In this document: positions 17,680-24,300 of the stretch, piece after piece
Numbering within the stretch: the first letter of the stretch is position 1
Layout of the letters: each line of letters starts with the position of its first letter
IMG/VR virus record: IMGVR_UViG_3300010352_001575
Span: 94,206 to 158,205 of that record
DNA length: 64,000 nt
Source: a virus
Direction: 5' to 3' (one strand)
Notes under the pieces: model-generated
What the model was told of the DNA's origin: nothing
Database searches by the model: none
Seen by the model: the letters and a program-made list of their open reading frames with translations, nothing else
Position numbers and translations under genes: made by a program

Positions 17680-19121
17680 TGGGACTTGTAACATTTTTTA
17701 AAGGTATTAGCAAGAAGGCCGCAACTGACGTAGCGCCGGTAGTCGCACAGAACGAGGTAGGTACCTCTGCTGCTGATGTGCCAGTAGCCGGAGGAGAGCT
17801 GCCGGTTATAGAAGAGACCACCAACAAAGAGGAAGTAGAGGGTTTGAAGAAAACCGTAGAAGAGCTCACAAAAGAAGTAGCAGAGCTAAAAGCAACGCAG
17901 CCAACAGATTTAACTGCAACACAACCCACAGAAGATAATACACTGGAGGAGCTGATGAAGGATAAGAACGAAGTAAAATCAGAAATCCCCGGTAATACCC
18001 CAACCACAGAACCGAATACAACTGAGGCCCCTAAAGTGGCGGCAGTCGCTGCCCCCGCGTTCAGGATATCGTATATCCTTAACCGTGAGAAAGGTTTCAG
18101 CGAATCCTATTTTGTTGCGCAGTCCGGCGATGAGATAAGAGCTCGGAGAATGGACAAGGTTATACCGGCAAGCGTTCAAACTGCCATACTGGCTAGCATT
18201 AAGAGCACTGGCAAGGCGCCTGAGAACATTGTGTCCCCGAGCGAGATAGTAGAAGAACTCAATCGTCAGGGCGTAAATTCTCTTGAGCTGTTTGACCAGG
18301 CTATGACAGATATGGAAACCAAGGCACACACGCTGACCCGTACGGCCGCGTCGAACCAAGGCGCACCGCTATACGCGCTGAACACCGCAGAGTCAAAACC
18401 TGCCTCGTTCGGTAGTGGTAGCGATCCTCTCGTTGCTCTGGACACCAAAGGGGCTGTTGAAGTTCCCCTGACTGGTTCCACCAACAAGAGCGTTGTAGGC
18501 AAGTACTACCAGAAAGCTTTTTCTGGCGCAGGTAATGAGACCGTTACCAATGCACTGAATCCGAAGTCGTCTATTAACGACGCTATCGAAGTTGCCAAGC
18601 TGCGCGACCAGATAGCTGTCTATAAAAAGGCCGCTCTGGATGCTAGGAAAGCCGCAGAAGAGATGAAGGCAGAGGCTGATAAGGCCAAGGCCGACACCGA
18701 AGTAGCCCACAAAGAGCTGGGTGACCTGAAGGAAAAAGACGAGAAGAGCCAGACTTCCGAGAAGCTTGACTCTATCGTTGACGAGCTCGTTTCTAAAAAG
18801 CTGATATCTGAGAAAGATGAAAAGGTTGCTATCGGTCATCTTTCCAAGATTGACGCCAAGAGCTTGCCGCATGTCAGCGCTCTGATCGGGATGCTAGGAA
18901 AATCTTCTGAGTCAGATGATGTTGGCGACTTATTTGGGGATTCATCTAAACCAAAGGGCGCGACTCCTCCGGCATTGCCGGCCCCTAAACCAGCTGCTGG
19001 TGCGTTCGGCGGACTGGGCGGACTAGGGAAAAAGAGCGCGTCAGTCATTCCGCAGCCGTTCGTTAAACCGAACAGCGGCGCAGACGATGATGTTACCTGG
19101 CTTAGCCAGAATTGGGATTAA
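17679..19121 (+). CDS. Scaffold-like coiled-coil head protein
   Basis: ATG overlaps the upstream TAA (TAATG at 17677-17681); long Ala/Lys/Glu coiled coil; lies between protease and decoration/MCP. Confidence 0.6.
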   Translation: MGLVTFFKGISKKAATDVAPVVAQNEVGTSAADVPVAGGELPVIEETTNKEEVEGLKKTVEELTKEVAELKATQPTDLTATQPTEDNTLEELMKDKNEVKSEIPGNTPTTEPNTTEAPKVAAVAAPAFRISYILNREKGFSESYFVAQSGDEIRARRMDKVIPASVQTAILASIKSTGKAPENIVSPSEIVEELNRQGVNSLELFDQAMTDMETKAHTLTRTAASNQGAPLYALNTAESKPASFGSGSDPLVALDTKGAVEVPLTGSTNKSVVGKYYQKAFSGAGNETVTNALNPKSSINDAIEVAKLRDQIAVYKKAALDARKAAEEMKAEADKAKADTEVAHKELGDLKEKDEKSQTSEKLDSIVDELVSKKLISEKDEKVAIGHLSKIDAKSLPHVSALIGMLGKSSESDDVGDLFGDSSKPKGATPPALPAPKPAAGAFGGLGGLGKKSASVIPQPFVKPNSGADDDVTWLSQNWD

Positions 19122-19143
19122 CCTATAGGTTCAGGAGGAAGTA

Positions 19144-19737
19144 ATGAGAATACGTAATTTTTACGGACGTGAGCTGGGCATTAACTGTGACAGTGCCCGC
19201 GAGGACATGGAACCAAGGGCAGTTCAGACTACTGACCTTGATATCTATGGTGGTAGCCCGATGTCGCTGCACAAATTCGGAACCGATGAGGACTCTAGCA
19301 TAGCGTCCTACGTCGAGCTGTTCACCGAGCTTGGTAGCGCGGCTGCTTGTAACATTCCCCTGCATGGTCTTGCAAAGTTCAACTGCAACGCCTACAAGAA
19401 TGAAACCAACGCTTCTGACGGCACCTACGGTGGCGGAAAGGGCGTTTGTGTGGTTTCCGGAGAGGGCGTGACCCTGTTCCCGAACCATTTCGCACAGTCA
19501 GATGGCTCCGTTGTGCGCGTATCGGCCTTCGTTACGACCGATTCGTTTGTCGCAATGGATGCGCTGTATGTTGACCTGGGCGTTAACAGCGCTGGCACCC
19601 CGGCTGCGGACTTCGGTAAGATCACCCGCACGCTGGATGGCAGCAACAACCAGAACACCCGCCACGGTATCGTGACGAACTTCTGGAGCTCAGCTGTGAC
19701 CCCTGTGCTGGAAATGAAACTCCAGCCGGTGTTGTAA
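19144..19737 (+). CDS. Putative head decoration protein
   Basis: 197-aa Gly-rich ORF with AGGAGG RBS, directly upstream of MCP. Confidence 0.55.
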   Translation: MRIRNFYGRELGINCDSAREDMEPRAVQTTDLDIYGGSPMSLHKFGTDEDSSIASYVELFTELGSAAACNIPLHGLAKFNCNAYKNETNASDGTYGGGKGVCVVSGEGVTLFPNHFAQSDGSVVRVSAFVTTDSFVAMDALYVDLGVNSAGTPAADFGKITRTLDGSNNQNTRHGIVTNFWSSAVTPVLEMKLQPVL

Positions 19738-19749
19738 GATTGTTCTAAC

Positions 19750-19776
19750 CCTGGGGCGGGTCTAACCCGCCCCAGG
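19750..19776 (+). terminator. GC-rich hairpin (terminator or mRNA-stabilising stem)
   Basis: CCTGGGGCGGG-TCTAA-CCCGCCCCAGG, a perfect 11-bp stem; weak U tract. Confidence 0.6.
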
Positions 19777-19915
19777 ATATTTAAGATTTTTGCTGTAAGC
19801 CGGAATAAATAGTTGTACCGGCATTGATATTTGACAATTTCGGTCCAAGCCGAAACGAAAGCAAGCGAACCAACTGACCTACTATAGGTATAGTAGGGTT
19901 GTATAGGAACATAGT

Positions 19916-22900
19916 ATGATGTTAGGTAATGCGAAGTCTTTCGCGGAAGCGTGGGCCCCTCAATACGAGGAAACCACAAACAGAAGGGGAGATGTGTGCG
20001 AGCGCGGTGCTCGTGCTCTTCTCAAGAAGGAAGCAAAAAAGGCAGAAATGCTGAAACGCATAGCCAGCGGCGAGGAAGCTCCTCTCCGTGGTGAGATGCA
20101 GGAGCTTCGTTTCCAGAACATTCTGAAAACGCCAGGCGCCGGTTTCTCCAGGCTGTCGTTCGCGTTACAGGGCCCGTTAAAGGACCGCTGTGACTACGTC
20201 TCCATCGGCCGCAAGCTGCTGCTGACTGACGTACTGCCGCAGGGCGAGATTTATACGAGTCTCGTAACTCACTCAAATGCTGGAAAATCCTTAGAGCCAC
20301 AGGTACCGGAAACGGTGACAATCTTGTGGATTGGACAATCAGCAGGGCGATATCGCCCTCAGAGACTAAATTTTGCATAGGTAACTATGCAAATACGGTG
20401 AGCTCTTCAAAAGAAGAGAAGGTATAGTCCGACCTGCATAGAAATATGCAGACTTTGGAAGAAACTCCAAAGCGCCTAGAGAAGTAGACTAGGTAGTAAC
20501 ACAGTGTCCGGCGTATGACCTTGATAAATGGCTTGTCACTTCACAGAGCAATCTGTGTTGAAAACCGTGGCTGCTGCTGGAAACTCCTTAGAGCTCTAAC
20601 TGCCAAAGGAGGCGAAAATGTTAGAGATTGGACAATCAGCACGGAAGTACCGTTGGAAGTTTAGATGGGAGTATACTACAATGACTCCTGAGCTGGCCTA
20701 CCTAATTGGTGTTTATTTAGGAGACGGCTCCATAGTTGCAAACAAACAATCGTTATGGTTTGTTTTGCAGGCTATAGACCAAGAGTTTGTAGAATATACT
20801 CGGTCGCTATGCCAAAAGCTAGTAAACGAAACCGTCCCAGAAGTACACAGGTATGTATACTCTAGTAAGAATTCTAGCCCTGTATACAAATTTGTATTTT
20901 CTAGTGGAGATTTCGCGAGCTGGATGATGAACATAACGGCGTGTAAAACAAGAATACCGCGAGAGATTGACAGAACGCCAGGTAATCCAATTCTAAAAGA
21001 ATTCTTATCTGGATTTCTAGATAGTGATGGATTCATCTGTAACAATAGACGCAAATCCGGAAGGGATAATTGGAATGTAGGATTTGGCGGAATATATGCG
21101 TGGATCCACGAAGTGGCGGATATTCTAAGAAATGAAAAATGTGTAGTAAATGGACCGTGGTTAATTAAGCGAAAGAAGTACTACTATGATTATAGGATAA
21201 CACCTAAAAGTTACGCCCAGCACGGCGTAGACTTTAAAATACATAGAAAACAAGAAAAGCTTAAACAACTACGAGAAACGAAGCTCAACGGAAATCCCCC
21301 AGAGACTGTATGCCACGCCCCCACGAAGGGTGAAGAGACAGTCCAACAGTTAGAGAAATCTAATTGAGATAATTGATGCCAGAATTCCCTGAACACTACG
21401 GACGGGGCCAGTTGCAATAAACTGGAAAATTTCGCTATATGCTGGAACATCTTCAAAAGATCTAAGTACTGGAAACAGTGAAAATCTTAGATACACGGAG
21501 ACAATCAGCAGGCAACCCGCAAGGGGCGCCTCAACGACTACACGCGAAACACTGCAAAGTGATGATATAGTCTGATCTGCATAGACATATGCAGTTAACA
21601 ATAATGGCCGTAGCAATCGGTGCCCGGGGTACTCCCCCGATGATGGAAGGAAACTTCCGTCGTATCCTCATCAATACATACTCGATCACAGTTAAATCGA
21701 GCCTGCATTATGAAGAGCTGCCGATCAGGCGCTTCCCAGTATTCGATCGTATGAAAGAACGCGTGGCTATTTCCATGGCGATCAAAGAAGACGATCAGAT
21801 ACTGACCCTGCTGGAAGATGGTCTAACGCAGTCTATTGCCGCGGGTTATGACCAGACCGTGACCAATAGCACAGCCGAGCTCTCGAAAGCCAACATCCTG
21901 TCTATCTATGGAATGCTGCTCTCGAACGGCCTGACTCCGGGCGCTTTTGTAACGCACCCGATGCGCTATGCCAGTGGTATCCTCAGCTTCGGACAAGCAG
22001 ACATTGACCAGGCTTCTCTAAACGTAATTATAGAAACTGGCCAGTTCGGCGTGCTATGAAAATGGCTCAGATACGCGTAAGCGTACTAGATACTTCACTA
22101 TATGCTGGAAACTCCTTAGAGCTCTAACTACCTAGAACGGTAAAAATGTTAGAGATTGGACAATCAGCAGGCAACCCGCAAGGGGCGCCTCAACGACTAC
22201 ACGTGAAGCTCCTAGGTAACTAGGATGAAGATATAGTCTGACCTCGATAGAGATATCGAGAGATAGGCAGAAATGACCTATCCCCGCGATAGCGGTGTAA
22301 CAAAGTGATTTGGTGTTCGCCAGATGCTGTCCACGAGGGTAAACCCCCGCAGGTTCTACCACACGACCACGCCTGAACATATCGGGCCCGGACGGAGCGA
22401 TTCGTCCGTTAACATTCAGTAAATTGCAAGGACACCCTATACTTATATAGAAAAATTTTGTATAATAAATATAGGACAATTTGCAGCCAAGCCTTGAAAG
22501 AGGAAGGTTCAGAGACTATAGACTGAATATCTCAACTGAGATAATGACATAGTCCGAACTATACGGTAACGTATAGAGATTAGCAGAAATGCCTAATCCT
22601 CGAGCAATCGAGTAACAAATTGGATAAGCTGGGTCGTATCCCTGAGTAAGCGTTCGGGGCCTGTGATAGAAATATTGCAGTGAATAACTTGACTGATGCG
22701 GAAAAATCCGAGTATCTTATGCTCCCAGAGTGGAATAACGCATAAGTGCGGAAAATTCGCAGGAGATTAAATCATGGAAAAAAGAGTATTTCGTTTCGGA
22801 AAAATTACACCAAGGCTGGCCTATGTACTAGGCGTATATTTGGGAGACGGATGGGCGTCCAAGCGAGGTGGGTTTGGCTTGTTCAGCATAGACAAAGAGC

Positions 22901-23754
22901 TGACAGACTGCATAAAATGCTACTGTGAAAGCTTTGTCGGTCCTACCCCTGAAGTTAAGCCCAGGCAATACAACAAAGGGTTTAACGGCAAAGGCGCTAA
23001 TGGTTGGGTTTACGAGTTTCACTGTCCGGAGTTTTGTTCCTGGTTGAAGGATATAACCAAGAATAAGGCGATAGTCCCAGACGTGATTCCAGTTACCAAC
23101 TCAGAAATAACCAAGAACCTATGCGAGGGTTTTATAGACGCAGAGGGCTGGGTTAAAAAGTCTACCAAAAAAACTTGTGCATACGGGCATACATACGGGA
23201 TGGGAGTTTGTAATACTAATCTAGATCTGTTAAACGGGGTTGTCTCCCGGCTAGAGCAAGTAGGAGTAAGGCACGGAAAGCTACATACAATAGTTAGAGC
23301 AGACCGGGTTAAGCCAGAATACTTCTACAACTTAGTATTACAGGACGCTGTGAAATCTCGGTTAAACTTGAGAACTCGAAGAAAAGCAGAGCGGCTTAAA
23401 GAGTACGCAAGTTTGAACTTTAAGAAACCTTGGAATAAGGGCATGACCAAAGAAGAAATAGTAGCTAAGATTGGCCATGATTATATGAAAAGAAATGATT
23501 TGATCTCTACAACGACTGAACGTCAAGCACCCTAACGGGTGGTGTTACAGTCTGACCTGCATGGCGATATGCAGTTAACATAAGTAGAACGCAAGAGCGT
23601 TGAGGTAAAAGTGATTGACTGGCCAGTTGACAATCGTTACATCATCTCCGGATGGGAAATGGTTGGCTTCGGTCTGCACAACACTGGTGGTATTTCCGCC
23701 GCGAAGCTGACATGGGGAAGCCTGCAGATGCCTGCTCGCTATCCACTGTCCTAA
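19916..23754 (+). CDS. Major capsid protein in 7 exons: join(19916..20250,20507..20525,21376..21390,21607..22055,22308..22374,22623..22643,23587..23754), 357 aa
   Basis: Exons sum to 1074 nt and read in frame: ...DYVSIGRKLLLTDVLPQGEI-PAYDLD-MPEFP-AVAIGARG...KEDDQILTLL...ETGQFGVL-FGVRQMLSTRV...TTP-DKLGRIP-ERKSVEV...GFGLHNTGGIS..., the motif order of HK97-fold MCPs of large myoviruses. Confidence 0.88.
20251..20506 (+). ncRNA. Group I intron 1 in MCP (256 nt, no ORF)
   Basis: P AATGCTGGAAA, Q CAATCAGCAGG, R TCAGAGACTA, S AAGGTATAGTCC; P1 GAGAT pairs with GTCTC with the terminal U-G; ends in G. Confidence 0.88.
20526..21375 (+). mobile_element. Group I intron 2 in MCP (850 nt) encoding a LAGLIDADG endonuclease
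   Basis: P TGCTGGAAAC, Q CAATCAGCA, R CCAGAGACTG, S AAGAGACAGTCC; the 3' end could be 21375 or 21378 (both in frame), P10 pairing favours 21375. Confidence 0.82.
20618..21367 (+). CDS. Intron-encoded double-motif LAGLIDADG homing endonuclease
   Basis: LAYLIGVYLGDGSI and FLSGFLDSDGFI; the true start may be ATG 20681 (MTPELAY). Confidence 0.9.
   Translation: MLEIGQSARKYRWKFRWEYTTMTPELAYLIGVYLGDGSIVANKQSLWFVLQAIDQEFVEYTRSLCQKLVNETVPEVHRYVYSSKNSSPVYKFVFSSGDFASWMMNITACKTRIPREIDRTPGNPILKEFLSGFLDSDGFICNNRRKSGRDNWNVGFGGIYAWIHEVADILRNEKCVVNGPWLIKRKKYYYDYRITPKSYAQHGVDFKIHRKQEKLKQLRETKLNGNPPETVCHAPTKGEETVQQLEKSN
21391..21606 (+). ncRNA. Group I intron 3 in MCP (216 nt, no ORF)
   Basis: P ATGCTGGAAC, Q CAATCAGCAGG, R TCAACGACTA, S ATGATATAGTCT; P1 CCCT/GGGG; P10 CTACGG pairs with 3' exon CCGTAG; ends in G. 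Confidence 0.9.
22056..22307 (+). ncRNA. Group I intron 4 in MCP (252 nt, no ORF)
   Basis: P ATGCTGGAAA, Q CAATCAGCAGG, R TCAACGACTA, S AAGATATAGTCT; IGS AAAT-GGC pairs with 3' exon ATTT and 5' exon GCT; ends in G. Confidence 0.9.
22375..22622 (+). ncRNA. Group I intron 5 in MCP (248 nt, no ORF)
   Basis: P AAATTGCAAGG, Q CAATTTGCAGCC, R TTCAGAGACTA, S ATGACATAGTCC; IGS TATC-GGGC pairs with 3' exon GATA and 5' exon GCCT; ends in G. Confidence 0.88.
22644..23586 (+). mobile_element. Group I intron 6 in MCP (943 nt) encoding a LAGLIDADG endonuclease; predicted terminal A
   Basis: R TACAACGACTG, S GTTACAGTCTG, P8 CACCC-TAAC-GGGTG; IGS GCGTTC-GGGG pairs 6 bp with 3' exon GAACGC and 4 bp with 5' exon CCCT. 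Confidence 0.82.
22774..23535 (+). CDS. Intron-encoded double-motif LAGLIDADG endonuclease with a C-terminal NUMOD3-like motif
   Basis: LAYVLGVYLGDGWA and LCEGFIDAEGWV; KKPWNKGMTKE near the C terminus; AGGAG RBS. Confidence 0.9.
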   Translation: MEKRVFRFGKITPRLAYVLGVYLGDGWASKRGGFGLFSIDKELTDCIKCYCESFVGPTPEVKPRQYNKGFNGKGANGWVYEFHCPEFCSWLKDITKNKAIVPDVIPVTNSEITKNLCEGFIDAEGWVKKSTKKTCAYGHTYGMGVCNTNLDLLNGVVSRLEQVGVRHGKLHTIVRADRVKPEYFYNLVLQDAVKSRLNLRTRRKAERLKEYASLNFKKPWNKGMTKEEIVAKIGHDYMKRNDLISTTTERQAP

Positions 23755-23769
23755 GCGATAGGGAATCAA

Positions 23770-23813
23770 TTGTAAAACCTGTGCCGGGTTGTACACCCGG
23801 CGCAGGTTTACAA
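23770..23813 (+). terminator. Long hairpin after the MCP stop
   Basis: TTGTAAAACCTGTGCCGGGT-TGTAC-ACCCGGCGCAGGTTTACAA, a ~19-bp stem without a downstream U tract. Confidence 0.6.
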
Positions 23814-23832
23814 CAACAACAAGGATAAAACA

Positions 23833-24300
23833 ATGGAAAACACAGAAGACTGGAAAAAAGAAGCAGCCGCAGTATTTGACGCCCCAGTGACCGCTGCGGG
23901 CGAATTGTCGTTAAAGAAGGAAGAACCTACCGACGACAACCTCCCAAATTTTTCAACAGATAACAAATTGCACTGGATGATGGATGGTGTTGACGCTAGC
24001 ACCAAGGCCGCTGTTGCCGCATTCGCCCGAGACTTTGAAAAGTGGACGGCAACGATGCTGCGGCTGCACGCAGAAGCTGGCGTAGAGTGTATGTTAACGC
24101 CTGAGATCATAGAGCATATCTGGAAGTTGCTATCTCAGTGCAGGAGTATGTTCGAAGTAGAAGCGCTTGCCCGTTACGTAATGGACGACGAAATTGTGCC
24201 AAACGAGTTTCAGCAGGTGAAGGACAGAGCCATAGAGTTATACCGAACGATACCGCTATTCGATATGGCTAACGATAAGAAGAAAGGAATGGACTTCTGA
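23833..24300 (+). CDS. Hypothetical protein
   Basis: 155-aa ORF with AAGGA RBS. Confidence 0.65.
   Translation: MENTEDWKKEAAAVFDAPVTAAGELSLKKEEPTDDNLPNFSTDNKLHWMMDGVDASTKAAVAAFARDFEKWTATMLRLHAEAGVECMLTPEIIEHIWKLLSQCRSMFEVEALARYVMDDEIVPNEFQQVKDRAIELYRTIPLFDMANDKKKGMDF

Follow-up and report, generated by a model that had tools for sequence, protein, structure and literature searches.

Recognition of group I introns is commonly described by two textbook elements, the terminal G of the intron (omega-G) and the U.G wobble pair in helix P1 at the 5' splice site, and the biochemistry of the Tetrahymena ribozyme has established this wobble as the main determinant of the 5' cut. Natural introns in which C.G replaces U.G at the 5' splice site are said to have been described by Hur and Waring in 1995 (Nucleic Acids Res), and the 23S rRNA intron Cbu.L1917 of Coxiella burnetii, to go by the title of Raghavan et al. 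2007 (J Bacteriol 189:6572), reportedly "lacks the canonical omegaG". Cbu.L1917 adjoins a second intron across a 34-nt exon (PMC10136302), and an intron ending in A (omega-A) is documented in hexacoral mitochondria, where the ND5-717 group I intron is removed precisely in vivo (PMC6545197, PMC8146996). Capsid genes of phages are well known to harbour group I introns with endonuclease genes; the capsid and tail introns of Cluster J mycobacteriophages carry homing endonucleases (PMC3706429), and Twort orf142 is split by three introns, with one exon of 23 nt (cited in PMC10136302). The locus considered here lies in a window of 64,000 nucleotides, positions 94,206 to 158,205 of the IMG/VR record IMGVR_UViG_3300010352_001575 (a phage record of 177.7 kb), in which the major capsid protein gene is split by six group I introns. 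The sixth of these (intron 6) is firmly predicted from its sequence to break one of the two end rules by lacking the terminal G or else the 5' U.G pair, and a fit, recurrent phage would then rely on an intron deprived of a textbook element. The parts of the gene concerned are listed below in window coordinates; register 0 keeps U at position -1, and register +1 has both splice sites one base downstream.

19916 to 23754, plus strand: major capsid protein gene, with seven exons and six group I introns.
19916-20250, 20507-20525, 21376-21390, 21607-22055, 22308-22374, 22623-22643 and 23587-23754, plus strand: capsid exons, with junctions taken from P1, P9.0 and P10.
22623 to 22643, plus strand: exon 6, a 21-nt micro-exon encoding DKLGRIP, a motif invariant in homologs; its last four nucleotides, CCCT, are the exon strand of P1.
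22644 to 23586, plus strand: intron 6, 943 nt, in the register keeping U at -1; the alternative register is 22645-23587.
23587 to 23754, plus strand: exon 7, ERKSVEVK...YPLS and the stop codon; G23587 opens the exon in register 0 and is the terminal G in register +1.

All capsid junctions were derived from P1, P9.0 and P10 and then checked against homologs, and the spliced protein of 357 amino acids could be aligned from end to end with the homolog P0003 (52% identity, E 2e-130), every junction being free of indels. U at -1 and a final G are common to introns 1-5, and intron 6 alone deviates. At the intron 6 junction, 11 homologs found among 1.8 billion searched proteins have ...TTPDKLGRIPERK(S/A)VEVK... 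without indel. The close relative L238 possesses intron 5 and lacks intron 6; its sequence runs from window position 22646 to 23599, reading ATC CCC GAG CGT AAG, i.e., an uninterrupted I-P-E-R-K. Compared with the window, it shows 97% identity from the end of intron 5 through exon 6 and 92% further downstream, and at the protein level its exon 7 is 100% identical to that of the window. Since the homologs and the intron-less L238 read GRIPERK and I-P-E-R-K, the mRNA is required to read ...AUCCCU GAACGC..., with the junction ATCCCT+GAACGC, and precise removal of intron 6 would restore the capsid reading frame. The 3' junction at |GAACGC and the capsid frame GRIP|ER, both put forward in the initial annotation, are thus borne out by the homologs, by L238 and by the end-to-end alignment of the spliced protein.

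Only three cut pairs can give the required mRNA, namely U22643|...A23586|, G22644|...G23587| and A22645|...A23588|, and none of them combines U at -1 with a terminal G; one near-universal end rule is therefore broken. With the CCT 5' site, the nearest Gs indeed lead to a stop (G23584) or to a frameshift (G23587), as had been claimed. A conventional pair of ends is available in frame if U22647, paired with G22652, is combined with G23584, which would offer both a U.G pair and a terminal G, produce P-E-L-E-R, the junction named by the initial annotation as refuting its reading, and give a cDNA reading CCUGAGUUAGAAC. The wobble would, however, close a 4-nt loop, P10 and P9.0 would both be lost, and the canonical relatives described below splice at the homologous register 0; moreover, the invariant GRIPERK motif and the intron-less allele contradict this junction, no homolog or intron-less allele having a two-residue insertion, and we regard it as very improbable.

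A23586 is genuine. The region 22600-23640 is identical (1041/1041 positions) in four other assemblies, a 119-kb ENA contig, a JGI contig and two Logan assemblies, all with the same endonuclease, and the identical sequence is found in at least five assemblies from different samples; a G at 23586, which the initial annotation had named as a refuting result, is not seen, all four having A. Given this identity, the intact exons and the presence of one capsid gene (no second one was found in the whole 177.7-kb record), a sequencing or assembly error, or a decaying pseudogene, has practically no probability. No joint across intron 6 was found in the contigs of three wastewater runs labelled "RNA-Seq", which are probably DNA and cannot show RNA ends. 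Searches with the C-terminal exon peptides returned the queries' own sequences only, except for P0039, which led to the intron-less allele.

By its predicted fold, intron 6 is a group I intron with core helices P3-P9 and the G-C pair of the P7 G-binding site. Rfam detected four group I introns in the capsid gene, while two further introns with LAGLIDADG open reading frames (ORFs) escape its model; intron 6 is unmatched at E values up to 1, with 723 nt of ORF inside P6, and was therefore identified by homology to its sister introns and relatives. It matches sister introns 3-5, which score 82-84 bits in Rfam, element by element:

22640 to 22659, plus strand: P1 hairpin, with CCCUGAGU (22640-22647), loop AAGC and internal guide GUUCGGGG (22652-22659), from the fold and a pair table.
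22650 to 22655, plus strand: guide half of P10, GCGUUC, pairing with GAACGC at 23587-23592 in six Watson-Crick pairs and abutting G22656.
22661 to 22680, plus strand: P2 hairpin.
22688 to 22693, plus strand: 5' strand of P3, CUUGAC, pairing with GUCAAG at 23522-23527.
22697 to 22761, plus strand: P4 (22697-22702 with 22756-22761) enclosing P5 and P5a, laid out as in the sister introns scored Intron_gpI by Rfam.
22762 to 22773, plus strand: 5' strand of P6, GGAGAUUAAAUC, pairing with GAUUUGAUCUCU at 23497-23508, with the endonuclease ORF inside the P6 loop.
22774 to 23535, plus strand: putative LAGLIDADG homing endonuclease ORF, 253 amino acids, Pfam PF14528.
23509 to 23552, plus strand: 3' half of the catalytic core, with J6/7 and the 5' strand of P7 (ACAAC GACUG), the 3' strand of P3, P8 (23528-23541), J8/7 GUGUUA (23542-23547) and the 3' strand of P7, CAGUC (23548-23552).
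23553 to 23586, plus strand: 3' end of intron 6, with J7/9 UGAC (23553-23556), the P9 hairpin (23557-23574) and the 12-nt tail UUAACAUAAGUA.

Exon 6 ends in ...GGTCGTATCCCT at 22643 and the intron starts with GAGTAAGCGTTCGGGG; P1 is thus CCCU/GGGG, with the wobble U22643.G22656 followed by the pair G22644-C22655. In P7, GACTG (23514-23518) pairs with CAGTC (23548-23552), and G23514-C23552 is the pair of the G-binding site. Two structural statements of the initial annotation hold at this level, as this G-C pair is unchanged and the 6-bp P10 (GCGTTC/GAACGC) abutting the U-G pair is perfect. The endonuclease ORF matches PF14528 (E value 1.6e-6) with a score above the curated cut-off, and is predicted to encode a homing endonuclease; its final codons cross the 3' strand of P6, J6/7, the 5' strand of P7 and the 3' strand of P3, with the stop codon in the P8 loop.

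Some matches of the protein search were capsid fragments running into an intron behind GR(I/M)P; through the contigs of these fragments and through endonuclease homologs, three more introns were located at precisely the same position: L027, L232 (present with identical sequence in L233, which comes from a second sample) and L026/L156 (99.9% identical, from different samples). The same-site family therefore comprises four distinct members only. The three related introns contain endonuclease homologs with 54-61% identity, and in all four members the 3' core, from CAACGACUG to the exon, spans 77 nt and aligns without gaps. P7 is invariant, while P3, P6, P8, P9 and P9.0 covary, with UCUAAC/GUUAGA, UUUAAC/GUUAAA and CCUAAC/GUUAGG as P3 strands in the relatives and GGAGAA/UUCUCC and AAGGUCAA/UUGACCUU as P6 strands; such covariation indicates that the four introns are ribozymes under selection. 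The exon side of P1 covaries as well (U.G, U.G, U.G and G-C at -1; C-G, U-A, U-A and G-C at -4). Pairs of P1 and P10 were counted by script, MAFFT shifting the guide sequence of L156 by one base, and gave the following picture in register 0:

L027: U.G pair at -1, last base G, P10 of 2 bp.
L232: U.G pair at -1, last base G, P10 of 2 bp.
Window intron 6: U.G pair at -1, last base A, P10 of 6 bp.
L156: G-C pair at -1, last base U, P10 of 4 bp.

A pattern specific for the tail gave 85 matches, of which only L156 and the related L157 are real, and the same pattern with N at the terminal position had no match. A scan of viral contigs with a core pattern returned more than 119 introns with CAACGACTG...ACAGTCTGA, all in other genes.

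P10 and the reading frame fit both registers of intron 6, which are told apart by P9.0 and the U.G pair only. In introns 1-5, L232, L027 and L157, the final dinucleotide of J7/9 is paired to the one that immediately precedes the terminal G, and these pairs covary (AC/GU, AA/UU, AU/AU, AC/GU, AA/UU, AC/GU, AU/AU and AG/CU); in nine related introns, L156 included, the terminal G stands directly after P9.0. P9.0 of intron 6 consists of A23555-U23585 and C23556-G23584, and the next base is A23586, followed by G23587, so that the adjacency rule designates A23586 as the terminal nucleotide. L232, the nearest relative, shares the J7/9 UGAC of the window and the 12-nt tail UUAACAUAAGU, and then has G instead of A, which argues that the A of the window is a derived substitution at the homologous terminal position. 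Furthermore, P10 reaches 6 bp as compared to 2 bp in both canonical relatives and 4 bp in L156. Together with the P9.0 rule and this long P10, the wobble kept intact at 22643/22656 favours omega-A; once the first cut has fallen in register 0, the mRNA stays in frame only if the second step uses this register as well. We therefore prefer the reading in which intron 6 would cut after U22643 and end in A23586, at a probability of about 50%.

The proposals of the initial annotation on the 3' end fared unequally. The pairing of the AC after P7 with G23584-T23585 is upheld by the adjacency recurring in the nine related introns. That the intron ends in A is favoured by the L232 tail ending in G and by the P9.0 rule, and is not proven, the shifted register giving the same mRNA. 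J8/7 was correctly read as GTGTTA, while its link to omega-A is lost, as it is a family trait, the two canonical relatives having AUGUUA and GUGAUA.

Several points weigh against omega-A. The G-C pair of the G-binding site being unchanged, an A should bind poorly, and in model ribozymes exon ligation is blocked when the terminal G is changed to A. An identical mRNA, together with a terminal G and a P10 of 5 bp, is offered by the register G22644|...G23587|, and L156 indicates that a 5' G-C pair combined with a terminal G shifted downstream by one base is workable in this family. Finally, the choice of register rests on DNA and protein sequence, which alone cannot decide it.

These points lead to the main rival, already recognized in the initial annotation as yielding an equivalent mRNA, in which both splice sites lie one base downstream: the first cut would follow G22644, paired with C22655, and the intron would end in G23587, A23586 then separating P9.0 from the terminal G as a single-base spacer. 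The terminal-G rule would be kept and the U.G rule broken. The unchanged G-binding pair of P7 is in line with such a shift, and so is the presence in all four family members of G as first intron base, of C as its partner and of G at exon position +1. L156 appears to have taken up this very register, since U at -1 is impossible there in every register giving P-E-R-K. Its P9.0 (AA/UU) directly precedes the G of the exon, and its tail of 13 nt, AUUAACAAAAUUG, agrees with that of the canonical L157, AUUAACAUAACUG; most likely, therefore, L156 has this G as its last base and is cut behind CCGG, where G-C would be the 5' splice-site pair, its terminal G falling in the shifted register. That the L156 intron is functional is suggested by its presence in two samples and by the intact exons that flank it. 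In intron 6, however, the U.G wobble one pair below should direct the first cut to register 0, and such a cut followed by a second step in register +1 would cause a frameshift; P9.0 would lie one base away from the terminal G, unlike in all nine related introns, and the tail is base-for-base homologous to the canonical L232 tail. To our knowledge, no natural intron has a purine at -1. We consider the one-base shift a real possibility, if one that we tend to doubt.

The four same-site introns may, tentatively, record a one-base sliding of both splice sites. L232 and L027, with U.G and a terminal G, would represent the start, and L156 the end state, its 5' site having a G-C pair and its P9.0 and terminal G having moved by one base; the window would be an intermediate, in which the old terminal G was lost while the old wobble and P9.0 were kept. 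Such sliding would be invisible in the mRNA because intron and downstream exon both start with G. If it took place, a purine at -1 would be compatible with group I splicing, and the splice sites of ribozyme introns could drift.

Introns 3, 5 and 6 (5' sites 21390/21391, 22374/22375 and 22643/22644) are all inserted at CCU|G with a C-GGG guide, and in each of them G starts both the intron and the downstream exon, so that the +1 register leaves the mRNA unchanged; in introns 3 and 5 the last base is G in either register.

Splicing of intron 6 might also be heterogeneous or helper-dependent, with both registers and mismatched combinations in use and only part of the transcripts functional, the intron being tolerated as a mildly defective parasite. 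Micro-exons and six tandem ribozymes make mis-splicing plausible, and the loss of the wobble or of the terminal G lowers splicing fidelity in vitro, but the capsid protein is needed in large amounts and the unchanged sequence in the five or more assemblies points to a fit phage; we find this explanation improbable.

Under the preferred omega-A reading, intron 6 would be a functional group I intron with a LAGLIDADG endonuclease gene, whose precise removal would be needed for the only capsid protein of the phage. An exogenous G would attack after U22643, wobble-paired to G22656 in P1, and the 5' exon would then attack the A23586-G23587 bond, leaving an intron that ends in an A derived by a G-to-A change relative to L232. 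The 3' site would be held from both sides, by the 2-bp P9.0 before A23586 and by the 6-bp P10 after it. By clamping the A23586-G23587 bond at the active site, this long P10 could compensate for weak binding of the A.

Intron content varies between very close relatives of the window. A DNA contig of run X3, from a relative about 96-97% identical, joins 20250 to 21607 via 34 bases encoding exons 2 and 3 (PAYDLDMAEFP), and this allele without introns 1-3 confirms those junctions at the DNA level; the X3 relative (~96.5% identical) retains intron 6. In L238 (positions 1-470) an HNH-type endonuclease ORF (...CVHHVDYDKKNCQENNLALLCRSCHSKTN...) lies inside intron 5, which in the window (22375-22622) is ORF-free and 248 nt long. 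Near the empty site 6 of L238, synonymous differences from the window affect seven of the closest codons, a pattern to be expected from co-conversion or from a target that resists cleavage. L157 (Ga0172381_10372241), a close relative of window exon 4 (34/35 bases identical), carries on the reverse strand, at about 1042-1122, an intron-3 site with an intron-6-type 3' end, CAGTCTGAGCTATATAGCGATATATAGATTAACATAACTG|GCC, and intron modules seem to move between sites of one gene, as judged from such sequences. The capsid gene of L156 (480-5964) is in at least seven pieces, with another intron after ...WEQIGVGIH, and heavy intron loads recur in this capsid family. The capsid fragment P0022 (ENA ERZ27247683) continues from ...TTTPDKLGRLP into KRRSLGLPEEIPGCK..., differs in this from the other fragments that read into an intron, and may represent a different intron type at the same site.

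The runs containing this stretch are activated-sludge metagenomes. The single capsid gene (19916-23754, plus strand) is placed between a scaffold-like gene and downstream head genes; a 197-amino-acid ORF without Pfam match (19145-19737) lies between the scaffold-like and capsid genes, and a strong GC-rich, terminator-like hairpin, CCCTGGGGCGGGTCTAACCCGCCCCAGG, is found at 19745-19775, shortly before the capsid gene begins. When positions 19000-24000 were compared with phage records by megablast, no match emerged, and the sole relative found by tblastn was the head protein of Bacillus phage G (27% identity). A locus search with exon 4 alone found nothing, while a search with the family alignment found 25 loci, with single and apparently uninterrupted matches of ~0.8-1.0 kb, which were not used further.

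As omega-A introns are already documented, intron 6 does not represent a new kind of element; the novelty lies in a phage example accompanied by matched same-site controls, canonical, shifted and intron-less. Should the one-base shift be true, a purine at -1 and the sliding of both sites by one base would also be new. These natural controls, i.e., two canonical relatives (one differing in its 3' tail only at the terminal nucleotide), L156 and the intron-less allele, bear on whether P9.0 and P10 can substitute for G binding and on splice-site sliding in ribozyme introns. For annotation, programs demanding U...G ends will mis-call such capsid genes.

Compared with known systems, the C.G introns are a precedent for a Watson-Crick pair replacing the wobble, of relevance to the shifted register and to L156, although they keep a pyrimidine at -1, versus the G that L156 and the shifted reading of intron 6 would have. 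Cbu.L1917 resembles intron 6 in being a bacterial-type self-splicing group I intron with a neighbouring intron across a very short exon, but it resides in an rRNA gene, whereas intron 6 interrupts a protein-coding gene and its A-ending competes with a register giving the same mRNA; the two are presumably unrelated in sequence. The phage structural-gene introns of Cluster J and Twort share with this gene the splitting of a late gene, endonuclease genes, several introns and very short exons; their ends are standard as far as reported, while here one intron in six lacks the terminal G or the 5' U. The coral ND5 intron that the initial annotation had invoked as a precedent for omega-A is found in the literature as ND5-717 (PMC6545197, PMC8146996), and, like intron 6 in register 0, it has A in place of the conserved terminal G. 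A terminal A is established by an unambiguous exon junction or by mapped intron ends. In ND5-717 the ligation site AGGGU/CCAACU starts with C, and no terminal-G register gives the same mRNA, unlike in intron 6, where intron and downstream exon each begin with G and the junction is ambiguous. ND5-717 is also organellar, vertically inherited and obligatory, with genes in P8 and some copies removed by back-splicing, whereas intron 6 would be a mobile element that carries a gene for a homing endonuclease and has canonical relatives at its own insertion site.

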